64,000 bases of DNA from positions 62,001-126,000 of the IMG/VR virus record IMGVR_UViG_3300032088_001800. The stretch is one strand, 5' to 3'. This DNA comes from an uncultured virus (IMG/VR IMGVR_UViG_3300032088_001800) (Duplodnaviria > Heunggongvirae > Uroviricota > Caudoviricetes). A model generated the notes under the pieces. That model saw nothing but the letters and a program-made list of their open reading frames with translations, was not told the DNA's origin and did not search any database. Below are positions 3,391 through 64,000 of this stretch, piece by piece; positions within the stretch are counted from its first letter, which is position 1; each line of letters begins with the position of its first letter. The translations under genes and the position numbers were made by a program.

Positions 3391-4359
3391 ATGGCAGATC
3401 GCAGCAAATTTGAAGAAATGCTCGAGCGTCTTATCAATGAAGATAAGGATGGCGCAGAAGAGCTATTCCACGAGATTGTAGTAGAAAAATCACGTGACAT
3501 ATACAACAACCTACTAGAAGATGAAGCAGAAGTAGACGAGTCAGATGACGAAGTTGAAGAAGCTACTGACGAAGAAGTAGATGAGTCAGACGAAGATCTA
3601 GACGAAGCATCAGACGAAGAAGTTGATGAGTCAGACGAAGAAGTTGAAGAAGGTTTTGACCTTGACGAGTTCGAAGTAGAAGCTGACCCAATGGACGCAA
3701 TGATGGGCGGTGACGCAGGCGACGACATGGAAATGGATATTGACATGGGCGGCGACGACGAAGAAGGCGACGACGAAGGTGACGAAGGCGATGTTGAAGA
3801 TCGTGTTGAAGACCTAGAAGATGCGCTAGAAGATTTAAAAGCAGAGTTTGAAAAAATGATGGCAGGCGATGACGCAGGCGATGATATGGATGACGAAGGC
3901 GACGACGAAGGCGAAGAAGAAGCAATGGCTTTTGAAGCTGACGAAGAAGTCGAAGAAGCTGCTGATGAAGAAGTAGAAGAAACAACTGATGAAGAAGTAG
4001 ACGAAGCAGAAGAAGAAACTGAAGAGTCAGAAAAATCAGCTGGTGAACAAATGCGCGAATACGTAGAAAAAGTAAGCGCAACAATGGGTGACAATGGTGT
4101 TAACAACAAGTCAGCACACGCAAGCCCAAATCACATGGGAGACGGTACCTCAGCTAACATTCTAAATGGCGGCGAAGATAACGGTGGCGGTGACCATGCT
4201 GGTCTAGCAGATATTAATGCTAAAGAAGATGACGCAGGCAACATTAACAAGCCAGGCGGAAAAGCATCTAAAGCAGGAAAATCAGAGCCAGGCCACGGGG
4301 CTGAGAAAAAAGGTAAGCCCGAAGCAGCAGCTGATAAGAAATCATCTATCGGCAGCTAA
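3391..4359 (+). CDS. Highly acidic prohead core/scaffold-like protein (ATG 3391 fits the SD better than 3385)
   Basis: Extreme D/E content with repeated EEVDESD/EEVEEA units; lies between portal and protease like T4 core proteins. Confidence 0.65.
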   Translation: MADRSKFEEMLERLINEDKDGAEELFHEIVVEKSRDIYNNLLEDEAEVDESDDEVEEATDEEVDESDEDLDEASDEEVDESDEEVEEGFDLDEFEVEADPMDAMMGGDAGDDMEMDIDMGGDDEEGDDEGDEGDVEDRVEDLEDALEDLKAEFEKMMAGDDAGDDMDDEGDDEGEEEAMAFEADEEVEEAADEEVEETTDEEVDEAEEETEESEKSAGEQMREYVEKVSATMGDNGVNNKSAHASPNHMGDGTSANILNGGEDNGGGDHAGLADINAKEDDAGNINKPGGKASKAGKSEPGHGAEKKGKPEAAADKKSSIGS

Positions 4360-4377: not shown

Positions 4378-5001
4378 ATGATGAACTTACGAGAGCATTT
4401 GACATTCGACGCAGCTAGAATGGTCGTTGAATCTGCTAATGAAGGGAAAGACCTTTATATGAAAGGTATTATGATACAGGGCGGTGTGCGTAATGCAAAC
4501 CAACGTGTATATCCTGTAAATGAAATTGGCAGGGCTGTCAAAACCCTCAATGATCAAATAACGAACGGATTTAGTGTTCTTGGCGAAGTTGATCATCCAG
4601 AAGGCCTTAACATTAACCTAGACCGTGTTAGTCATATGATATCCGAAACTTGGATGGACGATGCAAACGGTTACGGTAAACTTAAAATTTTACCAACTCC
4701 AATGGGACAACTAGTAAAGACAATGCTCGAAAGCGGCGTCAAACTAGGTGTCTCATCTAGGGGCTCTGGTAACGTTTCTGAAGACGGCAGTAACACCGTT
4801 TCAGATTTTGAAATTATCACTGTGGACGTTGTGGCTCAGCCTAGCGCCCCTGGTGCATATCCAACACCTATTTACGAACATCTAATGAATTCACGTGGCG
4901 GATATCAGGCATACGAATTAGCTCAGGCAACTAAACACGACGACAAGGCACAAAAGTATCTAAAGGAATCACTGATCAACATGATCAGTAAACTCCAATA
5001 A
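4378..5001 (+). CDS. gp21: Prohead protease
   Basis: NANQRVYP, LGEVDHP, GVKLGVSSRGSG, DVVAQPSAPGA motifs. Confidence 0.95.
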   Translation: MMNLREHLTFDAARMVVESANEGKDLYMKGIMIQGGVRNANQRVYPVNEIGRAVKTLNDQITNGFSVLGEVDHPEGLNINLDRVSHMISETWMDDANGYGKLKILPTPMGQLVKTMLESGVKLGVSSRGSGNVSEDGSNTVSDFEIITVDVVAQPSAPGAYPTPIYEHLMNSRGGYQAYELAQATKHDDKAQKYLKESLINMISKLQ

Positions 5002-6135: not shown

Positions 6136-7308
6136 ATGTCAGAACTACTAGAAAGTCGCTGGCAGGATACCAAAACAGCTTTACTTGAAGGCCTATCAGG
6201 CAATAAAAAAGCAGTAATGGCTTCCACGCTAGAAAACACTCGCAAGTATTTGAGTGAAAGTGCAACAGCTGGTGCTACTTCCGCCGGTAACGTTGCTACT
6301 CTTAACAGAGTAATCCTACCAGTCATCAGACGTGTTATGCCAACAGTAATAGCAAATGAGCTAGTTGGTGTGCAGCCTATGACAGGTCCAGTGGGTCAAA
6401 TCCACACATTAAGAGTTCGTTATGCGGACACTTTCAACGCAGGTGCATCAGGTGCAACAGCAGGTGAAGAAGCTCTAAGCCCATTCAAAATTGCTGAATC
6501 ATATTCAGGTGCAACAGACGGCAAGGCTGCGGCAACAGCAGTACAGGAAGGACAAGCTGGAAACAGAATGTCAATCCAAATCTTGAAACAAACTGTAGAA
6601 GCAAAAACACGCAAACTAAGCGCACGTTGGACCTTCGAAGCAGCTCAAGATGCACAGTCTATGCATGGCATTGACGTTGAAGCAGAAATCATGGCAGCTC
6701 TTGCACAAGAGATTACTGCTGAGATTGACCAAGAAGTTATTGCTTCGCTACAAACACTAGCAGGCACAGCAGCTGAAACATACGACCAAGCAGCAGTATC
6801 AGGTACAGCTACTTTTGTTGGTGACGAACATGCAGCACTTGCAGTTCAAATCAACAGAGTGTCAAACTTGATTGCACAGCGTACACGCAGAGGCGCAGGT
6901 AACTATGCAGTGGTATCACCATTTGCACTAACTATCCTACAGTCTGCAACTACAAGTGCATTTGCACGTACAACTGAAGGCACATTTGAAGCACCAACTA
7001 ACACTAAAATGGTTGGTACATTGAACAATGCAATGAAAGTATATGTAAACACATACTCAGCAGATAACGCTGATGTACTAATTGGTTACAAGGGATCAAG
7101 TGAGTCAGACGCACCAGCGTTCTATTGCCCATATATCCCACTAATGTCAAGTGGTGTGGTACTAGACCCAGCATCATTCGAACCAGTCGTGAGCTTCATG
7201 ACACGTTACGGATATGTTGAGCTAACTAACACAGCTTCGTCACTAGGTAACGCAGCTGACTACTTAGGTAAAGTTGCTATTACTAATGGTAACGTTAGCT
7301 TTAGCTAA
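6136..7308 (+). CDS. gp23: Major capsid protein
   Basis: gp23 motifs GVQPMTGPVGQI, AKTRKLSARWTFEAAQD, EITAEIDQE, FYCPYIPL, FMTRYG. Confidence 0.97.
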   Translation: MSELLESRWQDTKTALLEGLSGNKKAVMASTLENTRKYLSESATAGATSAGNVATLNRVILPVIRRVMPTVIANELVGVQPMTGPVGQIHTLRVRYADTFNAGASGATAGEEALSPFKIAESYSGATDGKAAATAVQEGQAGNRMSIQILKQTVEAKTRKLSARWTFEAAQDAQSMHGIDVEAEIMAALAQEITAEIDQEVIASLQTLAGTAAETYDQAAVSGTATFVGDEHAALAVQINRVSNLIAQRTRRGAGNYAVVSPFALTILQSATTSAFARTTEGTFEAPTNTKMVGTLNNAMKVYVNTYSADNADVLIGYKGSSESDAPAFYCPYIPLMSSGVVLDPASFEPVVSFMTRYGYVELTNTASSLGNAADYLGKVAITNGNVSFS

Positions 7309-7424: not shown

Positions 7425-8432
7425 ATGAAACAGATATTGATTACATTATCTGCAATATTTTCTATTATTGCAGCATCTGCTTACGCAGAAACAACAACAA
7501 CTCTTGAACAAAGAGTTGCTAACTTAGAAAAATCAGCACCTTCACTTCCGGCAGGTGTGTTTATTAACGGTGAAATTGAATTATACATTGATCCTGATAG
7601 TACAACAAATAAAACGGAAACTAATGCAGAAATATTTATAGGTCTGCAAAATGAGATCGACCATCCTGTTATTAATTGGGCAGGAGCAAGTACACGCCTT
7701 GATTCAAAATATTCTCTAAACAGAGCATTGGACAATACTATTGTTGAAAAACAATTAGGATTTGGAATTGCTGGTACAAGATTATATCTTGGCGAAACAG
7801 ATGCTCAACGTTTAGGTTTTGCAAAAACATCTAAAATTGGCGCACCATTAGTTATTACAGAGTTAAGTAGTAGAATTGACCATAATGAAAAGATTGTACT
7901 TACATTTGGTGGATGGAAAAACAACAACGAGTTTGAGTTTGACGAATATAGATTACAGCGTGATACGCCATACGGCGGAGTTGTAGCATACGATCCAAAT
8001 AATGAAGTAACATATGCAGGAGCAACAGTAAGTTTACTTGGTCTAGCTGATGTTTCTTATATGCGTATTGACAAAAAAGATGCAGTACTACAAGAAGGTT
8101 ATTCAATTGGCACTCAAGTACTTCGTAGATACGGAATACCTGTAGGACTTGGAGTTGAAGTATGGGACGATGGCAACACTGGACCATTTACTTCTGAAAG
8201 CAGAATTGACATGGGAATAATGTACAATGTCAATAAAGAATTCATGCTTACTGCACATAAAGTCAAAAATGACGATATTGGTACAGATGCAATGTACTAC
8301 GGAGCATTATATACTGTAGGCAATATCCAAACTGGATTGTATTTGCACCAAGTAGATAGAACAAACACATGGACCGGTCAAAGAACTGAATATGCTGATA
8401 GTATAAAAGCTACAATTAAATATTCTTTTTAG
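7425..8432 (+). CDS. Porin-like outer-membrane beta-barrel protein
   Basis: Sec signal peptide (..AASAYA|E), short coiled coil LEQRVANLE, alternating amphipathic strands, C-terminal SIKATIKYSF ending in Phe (BAM signal pattern). Confidence 0.7.
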   Translation: MKQILITLSAIFSIIAASAYAETTTTLEQRVANLEKSAPSLPAGVFINGEIELYIDPDSTTNKTETNAEIFIGLQNEIDHPVINWAGASTRLDSKYSLNRALDNTIVEKQLGFGIAGTRLYLGETDAQRLGFAKTSKIGAPLVITELSSRIDHNEKIVLTFGGWKNNNEFEFDEYRLQRDTPYGGVVAYDPNNEVTYAGATVSLLGLADVSYMRIDKKDAVLQEGYSIGTQVLRRYGIPVGLGVEVWDDGNTGPFTSESRIDMGIMYNVNKEFMLTAHKVKNDDIGTDAMYYGALYTVGNIQTGLYLHQVDRTNTWTGQRTEYADSIKATIKYSF

Positions 8433-8442
8433 AAAAAAAAGG

Positions 8443-8470
8443 TTGACATCTTATATATAGATGCTATTAT
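8443..8470 (+). promoter_or_regulatory. Sigma70-type promoter
   Basis: TTGACA (8443-8448), 16 nt spacer, extended -10 TGcTATTAT; A-tract upstream. Confidence 0.75.
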
Positions 8471-8476
8471 GTATAT

Positions 8477-8722
8477 ATAAGCTAGACGACGGTTTAGATT
8501 AGATAGTGCAAGGAACGGTGTTGCGTAGTGACACAACTTGGCTAGTAGCTGTAGTGGCAACATATGAGTGTAGAGATACAAAGATATGTTTTTGGAAGTA
8601 ACTATCCGATACTAGGCTCCTCCGAATTATGCGAGAGCTACTAGGAGGTTGTTGGTATTCTCAAAGTCCAACCTATCACATTATTATTAAAGGTCTACCC
8701 ACTAATGCGGTAGGCCTTTTTT
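8477..8722 (+). ncRNA. Candidate structured non-coding RNA of unknown family (~200 nt core plus terminator)
   Basis: Own promoter and terminator; no ORF with an RBS; nested helices 8502-8506/8673-8677, 8542-8550/8636-8644, 8559-8565/8584-8590, 8651-8655/8668-8672; GAGA tetraloop. Confidence 0.65.
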
Positions 8723-8727
8723 CTTTT
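8689..8727 (+). terminator. Rho-independent terminator closing the ncRNA
   Basis: AAAGGTCTACC / GGTAGGCCTTT stem followed by TTTCTTTT. Confidence 0.85.
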
Positions 8728-8741
8728 CTCTTAGACCTTTG

Positions 8742-8843
8742 ATAAATACTATTGTCAAATAGTGTGCCGCAAGGCGGACTTATGCTGTACCCACAGCGTA
8801 GCTCATAGAACGGGCATAGGACTACTTAAATAGGAGAAAACAA
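8742..8843 (+). promoter_or_regulatory. Late promoter ATAAATA (8742-8748) plus a structured 5' leader
   Basis: Hairpins GCC-GCAA-GGC, TATGCTGT-ACCC-ACAGCGTA and GCTC/GGGC before SD AGGAG. Confidence 0.6.
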
Positions 8844-9284
8844 ATGGGAAGACCACTTAATAAAAGATTTTTCGGAGCACCAACAACAGATGGATCTGAA
8901 ATCAAAGTACAATTTAATGACGGCTCTGGTTCAATGCCAGGATACATTGTTAACCAAAAAGGTTCAAAGCGTTTTAATTGTTCAAATGCCGGCGGAACAA
9001 AAACAGATCTTTGTACACTAGTAGATAAAGATTCAGCAGATATTCTAGCAGGCGAAATGACAATTACAGTAGACGACGACGGCACAGCACGTCAAGTTAC
9101 TAAGATTACAGGACGCAAAGTTACTTTAGATGACGGATCAATTACAACTTGGGACTTCACAGGTACTGGTGATACAGTAGCAATTGAAGAAGCTGGTACA
9201 GCCGTAGGCGCAGGTACTGACACAGTACTAGGTACAGATGATGACGTACTAACAGGTGCTGACGATACTGAAGGCGACGACTAA
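8844..9284 (+). CDS. Hypothetical virion protein with acidic C-terminal tail
   Basis: Late promoter, strong SD, T/D/G-rich beta composition. Confidence 0.6.
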   Translation: MGRPLNKRFFGAPTTDGSEIKVQFNDGSGSMPGYIVNQKGSKRFNCSNAGGTKTDLCTLVDKDSADILAGEMTITVDDDGTARQVTKITGRKVTLDDGSITTWDFTGTGDTVAIEEAGTAVGAGTDTVLGTDDDVLTGADDTEGDD

Positions 9285-9290
9285 AAATAA

Positions 9291-9315
9291 TGTAGGGGGA
9301 TTTATTCCCCCTACA
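9291..9315. terminator. GC-rich hairpin (terminator or mRNA-stabilising stem)
   Basis: TGTAGGGGGA-TTTAT-TCCCCCTACA perfect 10 bp stem; T-rich tail only on the minus strand. Confidence 0.6.
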
Positions 9316-9333
9316 CTTAGCTAGGATTACATA

Positions 9334-42466: not shown

Positions 42467-42473
42467 TAATTAC
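42467..42473 (-). promoter_or_regulatory. Late promoter variant GTAATTA, 5 nt before ATG 42461
   Basis: Same TAAnTA-N5-ATG geometry as other sites; no SD. Confidence 0.5.
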
Positions 42474-43153
42474 CTATAATTTTTCTTTTGATGAAAGAAT
42501 TTGGCGTATGTTCCGTGCCATACTTTCTTTATGAAATGAGAGTAAACAGTTTTGCCTAAGTAGTCATCGTATACAATTTCAGACTTCCAATTGTCACGTT
42601 TAAATGGCATAGCAATCATTAATGGATCACCTGGGTCAGCTACAAAATCTTGTTTAGCATAACCAACAAAATTTACACTATCGTCATGTGTATCGGTATC
42701 AACTACACTAGGAAACATTACATAATCTTCATTCATATTATAGAAAGGTTGAAAAAACAATGTACTATAGCCAGGCGGAGTTCTAACCATCCAAGGTTGG
42801 TTAAATTTAATATAATTATGATTGTCGCCCTCAATCTTAATAGGACATTGTTCGTGCGGATGAGCTGACACATAATCCTTCATAGGACACATATACTCAG
42901 TATCTCTTCTTCCGTTTTCATTTAATACTTTAAAGTCTGTTTGATGTGAATGCCGCAAGACATAACCAGTAGTAAGGTAATCTAATACTGGAACACATTT
43001 CTTAATTGTAGGTACTGCATGTTTTTCTTGACCATGCATTATTTCGTTTGGTATTTGTTTGTACCAATCAGGAATTATTTTTGAAGCAGGTAAAGGCGGA
43101 TAAAGATCCACGATAGTTTTGTCGTAACAAATAAACTTTATTATGTTATCCAC
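42470..43153 (-). CDS. DUF6065-like / dUTPase-fold-like protein (paralog 2), GTG start
   Basis: PASKIIPDWYK, TIKKCVPVLD..GY, TPPGYS.LF, PSVVDTD, PGDPL...PFKR. Confidence 0.55.
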   Translation of the reverse strand: MDNIIKFICYDKTIVDLYPPLPASKIIPDWYKQIPNEIMHGQEKHAVPTIKKCVPVLDYLTTGYVLRHSHQTDFKVLNENGRRDTEYMCPMKDYVSAHPHEQCPIKIEGDNHNYIKFNQPWMVRTPPGYSTLFFQPFYNMNEDYVMFPSVVDTDTHDDSVNFVGYAKQDFVADPGDPLMIAMPFKRDNWKSEIVYDDYLGKTVYSHFIKKVWHGTYAKFFHQKKNYR

Positions 43154-43155
43154 TA

Positions 43156-43803
43156 TTATTTAAATTCCTTTTTTGCATGAAACAATTTCTTGTATGCACC
43201 TGTAATATATTGTAACACATGACTACTGATATTGTCAACTAAATTTACTTGTGATGTCCAAGGATCTCTTTTAAACGGAACTACTTGTGCAAGTATATCA
43301 CCTGGACTAATTTTTAAATTTTTGACATGTGCTTCTACTACTACTGATAGTACATAATCATGTTTATCAGTGTCAATTATTCCTGGTAGAACTGTAAAGT
43401 TAGTTATGTCTTGATAGTGTGGATGAAATATCATACAACTGTAACCTGGTGGTGTTTTGATAACAAAATCAGTTTCTATTCTTGCATAGGATTTTTGTAT
43501 AACTTTTGTTTTTGGAAATGCGGTATTAGTATATATGCTAGGGTGTTTACGCATCTGTGGTCTTGTGTTAACACTACTAATTTCTCTTCCCTTTACAAAA
43601 TCTTTTATTTTTTCGTCAACATCATATTCATATGTGCTTCGAATCATATATCCGCTATTAATAAAGTCCATAACAGGTGGACACGAATATATAGTATCGC
43701 GAGGTTCTATATTGCTATTATACCAATCAGGCATACTAGTACTTGCAGGTATTGGAGAGAAATATTTTGCTGTTTCACGGTCTGTTATAAATTCAATTTT
43801 CAT
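43156..43803 (-). CDS. DUF6065-like / dUTPase-fold-like protein (paralog 1)
   Basis: PIPAS..MPDWY, CPPVMD..GY, TPPGYS, LPGIIDTD, ISPGDILAQVVPFKR. Confidence 0.55.
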   Translation of the reverse strand: MKIEFITDRETAKYFSPIPASTSMPDWYNSNIEPRDTIYSCPPVMDFINSGYMIRSTYEYDVDEKIKDFVKGREISSVNTRPQMRKHPSIYTNTAFPKTKVIQKSYARIETDFVIKTPPGYSCMIFHPHYQDITNFTVLPGIIDTDKHDYVLSVVVEAHVKNLKISPGDILAQVVPFKRDPWTSQVNLVDNISSHVLQYITGAYKKLFHAKKEFK

Positions 43804-61654: not shown

Positions 61655-64000
61655 ATGGCATTAGTATCCCCAGGTGTAGAGGTCAATGTAATCGACGAGA
61701 GTTTTTACACTCCGGCGGCTGCAGGCACCGTACCAATGATATTTGTTGCAACGGCAGCTGACAAAGTTAAAGGCAGTGGAGCTGGTGTAGCAGAAGGTAC
61801 AAGCGCAGCAAACCAAGGTAGACCTTACCTAATAACAAGTCAAAGAGAGCTTGTGGAAACATTCGGAGATCCGTTGTTCTACTCAGACAATAACGGAAAT
61901 ATGATCCACGCAGGTGAACTTAACGAATACGGACTTCAAACAGCGTATTCACTACTAGGCGTAACAAACAGAGTTTACGTATGTAGAGCAGATATTAACT
62001 TATCAAAACTAGAAGCAAGTGCAACAGCACCAGGCGGTGATCCGCTTGATGGCACTTACTGGTTTGATACACTAAACACAAATGTTGGTGTTAAAGAATG
62101 GAACGGCGCTTCCATTACATCAACAAATGGACAAAGCTTCAGTTCAGTAGTACCAACAATTATTGTTGAAACTAGCAAAGTAGTAGACTATGCAGGCGGC
62201 GACTATACACCAAAAACATCAGTAGGTGCAGTAGGTGATTATGCATTAGTTGCAGTTACAACTGTAAACAGACTATGGTACAAAAACAATGCTGGTGCAT
62301 GGGTAACAGTTGGTGGTGATGCATGGAGAGCAGCATGGGCATCTATTAGAGGCACAGTAAATACTCCAACAGTACCAAGTGGTGTAGATTTAAGTATCGA
62401 CGGCGAAGCAGTAACAACTACAGGTACAACAGTAACACAATTAGCAAGTGATATTAATTCAAATTCAAACCTAGCAACAGCAGGTGTTACAGCAGCAGCA
62501 GTTGACGGTGCATTAGAAATTTATACTAATAACAATTCAGTAGATATTGATGCATCACCGGCTTCAGATGCTGGACTATTAACAGCAGTTGGCTTAACAG
62601 CTGGAACATATTATGCTCCATTTGTTACTGAAGCACCACATACATCGGTTCCAGAATATAAATCAACAGATTCAAATCCAAGACCGACAGGTTCTATTTG
62701 GATGCAAACAACTGCTCCTAATTCAGGTGCAACGTTTACTGTTAAACAGTGGAATGATGATACTAAACTTTGGTCAACTATTCCAGCACCATTGTATGAC
62801 ACAGCAGCAGGTGCTCTTGCAGCACTAGACAAAACAGGCGGTGGCAAGAATCTTGCAATAGGCGATCTATATGTAAATGTAGACGTTGCAGACACAACAC
62901 CAATTGATGCAACTTACAAAATTTTCCGTAGAGCTGCTACAGGCGCAACGAAAATACAAAGTGCAAAAATTGCAGCACAACTATCTGGCGCAAGTGTTAG
63001 CTTTACAATGGCTGAATCCATTATAGGCTCAGCAACTTTAAGTAGCGCAAAAACAATATCATTTACTGGAAGTGGCGCAAGTGCTGATGCAGACGATATG
63101 GCTGGCGCTATTAACAGTGCAGGATTTGTAAACATAACAGCAAGTGTTGATGCACAAAATAGAGTTGTAATTTCACATGCTGGTGGCGGCGAAATGAAAC
63201 TTGTAGATACAAGTGGTGATCTTGCAGTAGCAGGATTTGCACCATATGACGTAAACAATGCAAGTACAACAACAATTAACCTAGACTATGCACCAGGAAC
63301 TGACGATACTACAAATCCAGAGCAGTATGTTGCTAGTAACTGGCGTACATTATCTTATACAGCAGACGACGATGCACCAACAGCATTAGCTGCACAAGGT
63401 GAGTTATGGTATAGTTCAGTAGTTGATGAAGTTGATATTTTGTACCACAATGGTACTACTTGGGTAGGATATGCAGACTCAACAGCATTTCCAACAGCTA
63501 ACTCAACAGGGCCATTAGTTACAGCTAGTGAACCAAAAACACAATCAGATGGTTCTGCACTAGTTGCAGGTGATCTTTGGATTGACACAGCAGACATTGA
63601 AAACTTTCCAACAATGTATCGTTGGACAGCAGCAAGTGAATGGCAGTTAATTGACAAAGCAGACCAAACAACTGAAAATGGTGTGTTATTTGCAGATGCT
63701 CGTTGGGCAGATGCAGGCGCTGATTCGGACGCAGCTTCAATTGAAGAGCTAATGGCATCTAACTACTTAGATCCAGATGCACCGGATCCAGCACTATATC
63801 CAAAAGGTATGTTGTTATGGAACCTACGTAGAAGCGGATTTAACGTTAAGCGTTTTGAGCGTAACTATGTTGATGTTTCATTAACTAACGATCGTGCAGC
63901 AGACGAGTCAATGGCTACTTATTATCCACACCGTTGGGTAACAGACTCTGGTAACCAACCAGATGGTTCAGGAACATTTGGACGTCACGCACAGCGTAAG
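61655..64000 (+). CDS. gp18: Contractile tail sheath protein with large insertions; 3' truncated and missing from the ORF track
   Basis: Hand translation gives MALVSPGVEVNVIDESFYTP...ITSQRELVETFGDP...ELNEYGLQTAYS..VYVCRA, a typical sheath N-terminus; appears open to the window end. Confidence 0.85.
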   Translation, partial: MALVSPGVEVNVIDESFYTPAAAGTVPMIFVATAADKVKGSGAGVAEGTSAANQGRPYLITSQRELVETFGDPLFYSDNNGNMIHAGELNEYGLQTAYSLLGVTNRVYVCRADINLSKLEASATAPGGDPLDGTYWFDTLNTNVGVKEWNGASITSTNGQSFSSVVPTIIVETSKVVDYAGGDYTPKTSVGAVGDYALVAVTTVNRLWYKNNAGAWVTVGGDAWRAAWASIRGTVNTPTVPSGVDLSIDGEAVTTTGTTVTQLASDINSNSNLATAGVTAAAVDGALEIYTNNNSVDIDASPASDAGLLTAVGLTAGTYYAPFVTEAPHTSVPEYKSTDSNPRPTGSIWMQTTAPNSGATFTVKQWNDDTKLWSTIPAPLYDTAAGALAALDKTGGGKNLAIGDLYVNVDVADTTPIDATYKIFRRAATGATKIQSAKIAAQLSGASVSFTMAESIIGSATLSSAKTISFTGSGASADADDMAGAINSAGFVNITASVDAQNRVVISHAGGGEMKLVDTSGDLAVAGFAPYDVNNASTTTINLDYAPGTDDTTNPEQYVASNWRTLSYTADDDAPTALAAQGELWYSSVVDEVDILYHNGTTWVGYADSTAFPTANSTGPLVTASEPKTQSDGSALVAGDLWIDTADIENFPTMYRWTAASEWQLIDKADQTTENGVLFADARWADAGADSDAASIEELMASNYLDPDAPDPALYPKGMLLWNLRRSGFNVKRFERNYVDVSLTNDRAADESMATYYPHRWVTDSGNQPDGSGTFGRHAQRK

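Follow-up and report, generated by a model that had tools for sequence, protein, structure and literature searches.

The window analysed here is a stretch of 64,000 nucleotides (nt) from an uncultured virus, covering positions 62,001 to 126,000 of the 135-kilobase (kb) IMG/VR record IMGVR_UViG_3300032088_001800. On its plus strand, an upstream open reading frame (ORF) of 335 amino acids (aa) (7425-8432, stop codon 8430-8432) and a downstream ORF of 146 aa (8844-9284) are separated by 411 nt without a credible ORF. This gap contains, all in the same orientation, a sigma-70-type promoter (8443-8470), a predicted RNA of the manA family (8477-8722, some 246 nt when counted from the presumed start as far as the T-run of the terminator, with the manA core at 8482-8682) and an intrinsic terminator (8692-8727). 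A second catalogued RNA, freshwater-2 (RF02980, 8763-8846, plus strand; 70.3 bits, above its cut-off), follows and extends over both the ribosome-binding site and the ATG of the 146-aa gene. From the letters alone, an original prediction had described 8443-8727 as an independently transcribed structured RNA of no class that it recognised.

Family membership of the predicted RNA

The manA motif was catalogued in 2010, according to the available text of Weinberg et al. (PMC2864571). Positions 1-192 of its Rfam model (RF01745) align end to end with 8482-8682 of the window (43.3 bits, expectation value (E) 1.7e-9). No other match to manA occurs in the 135-kb record; computed over the record as a whole, E is 4.1e-11. 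A scan of the window at gathering thresholds lists freshwater-2 alone because the manA match scores under 55.2 bits. Since the gathering cut-off is a curation threshold and not a structural feature, a score beneath it was not treated as excluding membership.

Relatives were collected with a 16-nt block that is invariant among the close relatives and matched at least 120 IMG/VR contigs. Of 142 occurrences taken from these matches, 90 had full flanks and 70 were distinct. Five loci (L068, L080, L084, L094 and L100) were dropped as chance matches, having no resemblance to the RNA beyond the search pattern, which left 65 sequences including that of the window; at least 65 distinct IMG/VR relatives have the core in common. 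When 20 representatives of the subfamilies were compared with Rfam, 15 matched manA at E <= 0.01 (29.7-64 bits), six of them with at least 55.2 bits, and five (L071, L093, L095, L097 and L115) gave no manA match. One representative is 100% identical to the cultured Pelagibacter phage Mosig EXVC030M, whose single manA RNA scores 64 bits. At the same genome position as in the window, upstream of freshwater-2 and the same 146-aa gene, locus L005 carries a manA RNA of 79.3 bits. A phage collection searched with the RNA region of the window and with the manA RNA of L005 yielded no match.

Because its relatives link up to members above the cut-off, the RNA of the window can be placed on a divergent branch of a family that extends without a break across the Rfam threshold. 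On these alignments the predicted RNA belongs, as a divergent member, to the manA family known before and does not represent a new class, so that the unrecognised class first suggested was not borne out by the Rfam scan.

Signals, fold and putative loop contacts of the cassette

The promoter comprises a -35 element TTGACA (8443-8448), a 16-nt spacer that contains TG at 8462-8463, and the -10 element TATTAT (8465-8470). It agrees with the consensus at 11 of 12 positions and has the TG of an extended -10 element, in keeping with the near-consensus promoter that had been proposed. A strict motif (TTGACn, 13-15 nt, TGnTAnnnT) and a looser one were scored separately. The loose motif is present at a fixed distance from the RNA core in 65/65 relatives; the strict motif was found in 52 of the 65, compared with 22 of 7,902 control windows. 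The promoter is kept across unrelated upstream genes and phage lineages. From its position we infer that transcription would start near 8477. Across both strands of the 64-kb window the strict motif has two sites, 8443 (+) and 43238 (-); the latter lies inside the 3' part of a minus-strand ORF (43156-43803) and upstream of another on that strand (42470-43153).

At the other end of the cassette, the terminator is built from the stem arms GGTCTACC (8692-8699) and GGTAGGCC (8709-8716), a run of six T (8717-8722) and a further CTTTT. Its hairpin has a folding energy of -16.2 kcal/mol, far beyond that of shuffled sequences (z = -5.15; 0/200 shuffles fold as well), which upholds the strong terminator of the original prediction. 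A consensus scan did not list it, since that scan accepts loops of up to 8 nt and the loop here has 9. The terminator starts 12 nt after the manA match ends, and an A/T-rich linker of about 12 nt lies between the RNA core and the terminator stem, with zero overlap. A terminator begins 10-18 nt past the core in 35 of the 65 relatives (the window and 34 others), with stem sequences that are unrelated to one another; among the 15 sequences of the window type, all except L040 and L120 have one close by. In the 35 terminator-bearing relatives, neither the RNA nor its 3' part displayed cognate-specific complementarity to either terminator arm (604-1838 of 2000 permutations reached the observed value). 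The positive control, in which the two arms of one terminator were compared, gave 0/2000. No expression platform, in the sense of a terminator pairing that competes with a sensing fold, was found.

To assess the fold, the 65 relatives were aligned with MAFFT in a structure-blind manner and analysed with RNAalifold, and the 15 closest relatives were treated in a separate alignment. RNAalifold recovered the manA helices from the 65 sequences, with 19 of 31 predicted pairs changed on both sides. When the structure was mapped onto the 15 closest relatives, 95.4% of cells were paired and 25 of 65 pairs had changed on both sides; none of 500 shuffles reached any of the five measures, and slid controls gave 34-42%. 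These compensatory changes support the predicted nine-helix manA fold. Thermodynamics alone was unremarkable (z = -1.76 for the whole stretch; 11/200 shuffles fold as well).

The nine helices were numbered here in order of occurrence. P1 is a 5' hairpin (8482-8497, CTAGAC/GTTTAG with loop GACG) in which 3/6 pairs have changed on both sides and 91.1% of cells are paired. P2 (GATAG/CTATC, 8502-8506/8673-8677) closes the multibranch core and is invariant in these relatives; its 5' side is part of the search pattern and its 3' side is not. P3 (8509-8540) combines an outer CAAG/CTTG stem (8509-8512/8537-8540) with the hairpin GTGTTGC-GTA-GTGACAC (8518-8534), and in the alignment of 65 its columns 32-35/63-66 are invariant and its columns 42-44/56-58 covary. 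P4 (CTAGTA/TACTAG, 8542-8547/8610-8615) closes the junction of P5, P6 and P7, with both-side changes in 4-37 of 65 sequences per pair at columns 68-72/139-143. Within that junction lie the P5 hairpin (8548-8558, GCT-GTAGT-GGC, loop L5 at 8551-8555; 100% of cells paired), P6 (8559-8590, AACATAT/ATATGTT with an inner TGTA/TACA and the GNRA-type loop GAGA at 8573-8576), which has both-side changes in 5/7 outer and 3/4 inner pairs, and the P7 hairpin (8592-8609, TTGGA/TCCGA, loop AGTAACTA). P8 (8619-8648, CCTCC/GGAGG with an inner GC-GAGA-GC) has 4/5 pairs changed on both sides. The P9 hairpin (8651-8672, GTTGG/CCAAC, loop TATTCTCAAAGT) occupies columns 187-191/204-208; here both-side changes were counted in 11 of 65 sequences at 188/207, in 38 at 189/206 and in 4 at 190/205.

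Much of the secondary structure first drawn for this RNA is retained in this fold. The hairpins GTGTTGC/GTGACAC and GTTGG/CCAAC, as well as AACATAT/ATATGTT with its TGTA-GAGA-TACA cap, are preserved through compensatory changes; the closing stem GATAG/CTATC also belongs to the fold and, being invariant, is compatible with it only. A proposed 9-base-pair helix, CTAGTAGCT/AGCTACTAG, extended by AACTT/AGGTT, was not supported: together with the proposed pseudoknot it left 77.7% of cells paired, where shuffles averaged 77.2% and 152 of 500 of them did as well, and it is mutually exclusive with the covarying P4. In the pseudoknot itself (8521-8529/8626-8634), the two central pairs hold in 1 of the 15 close relatives and the four outer pairs (8521-8524/8631-8634) are mostly kept.

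Contacts between terminal loops were tested by comparing, over unique loop combinations, the lengths of helices that each loop can form with its own partner loop and with permuted ones. An earlier version, which used whole hairpin regions and duplex energies, gave differences of at most 0.9 kcal/mol and was too noisy. Among ten loop pairs tested, cognate-specific complementarity was found in L3-L8, L5-L7 and L8-L9 only, each with 0/2000 permutations. For L5-L7 the cognate mean was 4.55, compared with 3.69 for non-cognate loops. In the window, TAGT of L5 (8552-8555) is complementary to ACTA of L7 (8601-8604), and across the family this pair covaries as GGUA/UACC, UGU/ACA, UGC/GCA, UAU/AUA and UAGU/ACUA. 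Similarly, GAGA of L8 (8633-8636) is complementary to TCTC of L9 (8659-8662), a combination that becomes ATGA/TCAT in L040, L041, L073 and L078 and CAGA/TCTG in L046, L076 and L125. This covariation shows selection on the predicted loop contacts. Complementarity of the L5-L7 type is marked 'pseudoknot?' in the available text of Weinberg et al. 2010 (PMC2864571).

A 2026 cryogenic electron microscopy (cryo-EM) preprint (10.64898/2026.07.01.735769) reports, in its accessible part, that manA RNAs form pentamers, pentamer-based decamers and a 60-subunit RNA-only cage in vitro. As contacts it gives the kissing loops L5-L7', combined either with L8-L9' or with L3-L8' plus a contact of L6 that is of the GNRA type, and assembly is described for five manA constructs other than the RNA of the window. 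Our helix numbering agrees with the preprint in that the loop of the sixth helix is of the GNRA type (GAGA here). With this numbering, we infer that the covarying pairs L3-L8, L5-L7 and L8-L9 correspond to the kissing contacts of the preprint.

The locus in the window and in its relatives

The presence or absence of the cassette marks it out as a block. In L045 and L051, exactly 8433-8671 (plus strand), that is the promoter and the RNA up to P9, is missing, and the upstream gene runs straight into CCTATCAC (a relic corresponding to 8672-8679), the terminator and freshwater-2. Since these two loci lack precisely this segment, the cassette appears dispensable; since they keep the terminator without the RNA, the terminator would also end the upstream operon.

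Between the terminator and the 146-aa gene, the downstream side has a late-type promoter motif of its own as well as the freshwater-2 leader. This motif, ATAAATA (8742-8748), lies about 15 nt before freshwater-2 and resembles the T4 late promoter, TATAAATA. Many relatives, whether or not they carry manA, share a conserved block bounded by TTGATAAATACT and GTCAAATAGTGTGCCGCAAGGCGGACTTATGC. The gene that follows the cassette varies. In L041 and L042, the manA terminator and freshwater-2 are set apart by an inserted gene (about 3807-4325) for a lipoprotein-like protein of 172 aa with a CHAP domain (PF05257, E 2.4e-7), and this gene is preceded by the late-type motif CTAAATA. A cold-shock-like gene comes after the cassette in L011. 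Matches to the cspA thermoregulator below its cut-off of 78 were recorded in L011 (1514-1962, 50 bits) and L055 (3548-3922, 26 bits); they cover a cold-shock-protein gene and its leader, which lie behind the manA cassette in L011 and behind the terminator of the 335-aa gene in L055.

The family also occurs in a setting of a different kind. In the cultured cyanophage S-CREM1, a canonical manA RNA (96.6 bits) is flanked by the genes for tRNA-Leu and tRNA-Asn, at distances of 1 and 0 nt. Set between two transfer RNAs (tRNAs), this copy is not a 5' untranslated region (UTR), and it is probably released by tRNA processing. The same region of S-CREM1 (L193, OP535465 9300-11300) interleaves a wcaG RNA, the manA RNA and a match to the abiF motif with six tRNA genes, and ARAGORN finds in it a tRNA-His (669-740) that is unannotated in the record.

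Further RNAs were observed near the cassette in some relatives. Glutamine riboswitches (RF01739, 43-58 bits, above cut-off) lie close to it in L046 (3528-3574), L052, L055, L059, L067, L081 and L097; in L046 the riboswitch is followed by an ORF of about 32 codons and then by the manA promoter, and L045 lacks both elements. L055 (2011-2389) and L059 (2030-2404) carry a permuted two-piece transfer-messenger RNA (tmRNA) gene of the alpha-proteobacterial type (123-129 bits), which hints at an alphaproteobacterial host for this lineage; their upstream 335-aa gene is 56-57% identical to that of the window. ARAGORN found no tRNA and no tmRNA in the window itself.

The wider genome contains head genes of the T4 type. 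Pfam and PHROG searches identified the portal gp20 (512-2269), the prohead protease (4378-5001) and the major capsid protein gp23 (6136-7308). The capsid protein is nearest, at 67-71% identity, to those of jumbo phages such as Vibrio phage 2.275.O, GAP32, CBB and PA5oct. A pelagimyophage identity was considered for the phage of the window and was ruled out by this jumbo-phage-like capsid; what it has in common with Mosig is the RNA subfamily only. The upstream 335-aa gene had been labelled a porin, a label left unconfirmed by Pfam and PHROG searches, neither of which returned a match. The 146-aa downstream protein likewise has no Pfam or PHROG family, and its Atlas scores of at most 0.86 serve as a lead only. 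Directly behind its ORF lies a strong G+C-rich hairpin of 12 pairs (9289-9317) that was called as a minus-strand terminator and may be a two-way terminator.

Material from RNA libraries was also considered. Part of the stretch is present in 20 of 23 listed runs, 14 of which are recorded as RNA. In a comparison that covered four of these runs, assembled contigs of relatives, with 7-11 differences, cover 8473-8684 and 8477-8684 and have other flanks that include promoter-like letters; such contigs show no transcript ends, strand or level. Within the library searched, no paper was found that places manA in pelagiphages or describes it as a stand-alone gene with a terminator, and the papers found name no ligand for manA.

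Interpretation and likeness to known systems

Taken together, these results favour a reading, to which we give a probability of about 0.62, in which 8443-8727 forms a gene complete in itself, for a divergent RNA of the manA family that is made early, does not gate its neighbour and acts as a free, homo-oligomerising particle. Host RNA polymerase would transcribe the RNA early in infection from about 8477 and stop in the T-run at about 8722, giving a discrete product, about 246 nt long, that has hairpins at its 5' and 3' ends. Late read-through from the operon of gp23 and the 335-aa gene probably also carries the RNA as a 3' tail that ends at the same terminator. The RNA would leave the next gene ungated, and its likeliest action, by analogy with other members of the family, would be homo-oligomerisation through the kissing loops L5-L7, L8-L9 and possibly L3-L8. 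The promoter in 65/65 relatives, the covariation and the lack of a coding signature all agree with the self-contained, non-coding structured unit with an early-type sigma-70 promoter that was originally envisaged. As to the functions then suggested, 'structural' fits best, given the loop-loop covariation and the self-assembly reported in the available part of the preprint; 'decoy/anti-defence' and 'ribozyme-like' found no evidence here.

Several points weigh against this reading. The manA match of 43.3 bits is below the RF01745 gathering score of 55.2. No terminator lies close behind the core in 28 of the 65 relatives, and in 21 of those 28 a TATAAATA late-promoter motif follows 6-11 nt after it. 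In the one such locus tested by Pfam (L095), the gene behind this motif is gp32 (E 1.7e-9), and in Mosig 23 nt separate the end of the RNA from a rubrerythrin gene. These three observations indicate that members of the family also serve as leaders of early messages, and the RNA of the window may likewise have a role in cis. Covariation cannot separate intramolecular from intermolecular pairing, and shared ancestry was only partly controlled in the permutation tests. The assembly data, as presented in the accessible text of an unreviewed preprint, were obtained in vitro with other family members, and the mapping of loops onto that preprint rests on the inferred helix numbering. Finally, the RNA-library material consists of assembled contigs, so the transcript ends stay predicted.

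An unlikely alternative, and the classical reading of manA, is that of a riboswitch or other cis-regulatory leader in which a ligand or factor sets passage from the early promoter past the terminator into freshwater-2, the 146-aa gene and the tail genes. The available text of Weinberg et al. 2010 (PMC2864571) rates manA as a likely cis-regulator and possible riboswitch, and a complex conserved fold followed by a terminator is the usual layout of a transcriptional riboswitch; the 21 of 65 terminator-less relatives with a nearby TATAAATA motif, together with gp32 in L095 and the rubrerythrin gene of Mosig, point the same way. Against it, core and stem are set apart by the linker of roughly 12 nt and do not overlap, and no covarying antiterminator or anti-antiterminator pairing to the terminator arms was found. 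L045 and L051, moreover, keep the terminator without the RNA. The gene behind the cassette differs among relatives, being the 146-aa, the CHAP-domain or the cold-shock gene; in the window it has a late-type promoter and conserved leader of its own, and the canonical manA of S-CREM1 sits inside a tRNA array.

We consider it more doubtful still that the segment is a 3'-end element of the upstream late operon, serving as a read-through tail, stabiliser or processing signal, with the sigma-70-like motif being secondary. In its favour, the letters from the stop codon (8430-8432) to the promoter contain no terminator, the upstream gene of L045 and L051 runs directly into the same terminator, and the RNA-library contigs of relatives extend upstream of 8473 and 8477 through the promoter letters, an appearance that carry-over of DNA would share. 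Against it, a near-consensus promoter is held at a fixed distance in 65/65 relatives across unrelated upstream genes and lineages, and the family is found behind different genes, inside a tRNA array and before gp32. To our knowledge, the fold is also far more elaborate than those of known 3' stabilisers, which we count against this view. A small protein gene, using the 26-codon ORF at 8564-8644, is the least credible alternative and highly improbable. Its frame is open in the window and the close relatives, spanning 5-32 codons across the 15. The original prediction had seen no ORF in the region with a supporting ribosome-binding site, and this ORF has no Shine-Dalgarno sequence. It also bears no coding signature: its start column reads ATG in 19/65 relatives, the 24 translations listed vary in length between 5 and 41 codons, and no ATG-initiated ORF of at least 20 aa preceded by a Shine-Dalgarno sequence occurs inside the RNA in any of the 65 relatives. 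Conservation following the codon structure was looked for and not found, variability being flat over the codon positions (0.457/0.582/0.523 in the close clade), and the changes are compensatory in the RNA helices P6, P7 and P8.

For the RNA itself, the result is a deflationary one, as the family has been known since 2010. What is added is that a strong promoter and a terminator without switch-like pairing bracket the RNA here, as in 34 further distinct relatives. A broader proposal, which we put forward tentatively, is that manA RNAs in general are subunits of RNA-only particles made by phages rather than gene switches; they would be discrete, abundant early RNAs, and their covarying loops would be the inter-subunit contacts seen by cryo-EM. 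If this is true, the RNAs would be supplied from cassettes of their own, as here, by excision from tRNA arrays, as in S-CREM1, and from the heads of early messages. The pentamer-based cage would then be the form selected in infected cells, where it might serve as a scaffold or as a sink for a host factor. Whether an 'orphan riboswitch candidate' of 16 years' standing is in fact a self-assembling phage RNA particle thus becomes a testable question, and two cultured phages, Pelagibacter phage Mosig and Synechococcus phage S-CREM1, carry a member of the family.

Several known systems offer points of comparison. ROOL and GOLLD are large structured non-coding RNAs of phages and prophages, are often located near tRNA genes and form closed RNA-only homo-oligomers. 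They are several hundred nt long, whereas manA has fewer than 250 nt. The position of manA within the tRNA array of S-CREM1 is reminiscent of them, a likeness in mode only. Freshwater-2 is, like manA, a catalogued motif of aquatic metagenomes and occupies the same intergenic region. It accompanies the manA cassette of the window, and a motif check places the two together in another 19 of 64 distinct relatives; it is nevertheless a separate element, present without manA in L045, L051 and loci that have no manA-like sequence by blastn. With terminating riboswitches the cassette shares a complex conserved fold, an intrinsic terminator directly after it and a strong promoter upstream. It differs from them in that fold and terminator neither overlap nor have a covarying alternative pairing, and in that the terminator occurs without the fold in relatives.

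The closest likeness is to manA (RF01745) itself. The predicted RNA of the window has the nine helices in the same order, with the closing stem, the P5-P6-P7 junction, P8 and P9, and it retains the GUG after P2, the L5 and L7 loops and the blocks UUG-GGUAU and UCC-CCUAUCAC. The complementarity of L5 and L7 is likewise held in common, as is residence in phages from aquatic samples with structural genes of the T4 type. Within this framework, P2 is GATAG/CTATC where the Rfam consensus has GGGaG/CuCCC, L5/L7 reads GUAGU/ACUA in place of GUGGU/ACCA, P6 is extended and capped by GAGA, and P8 is rebuilt. The setting differs as well. The 5' UTR position that is the typical context of manA (Rfam type 'Cis-reg') does not apply here, since a terminator, a late-type promoter and a second leader intervene before the next gene; instead, the RNA lies in a cassette that runs from promoter to terminator, within the late structural region of a genome resembling those of jumbo phages.

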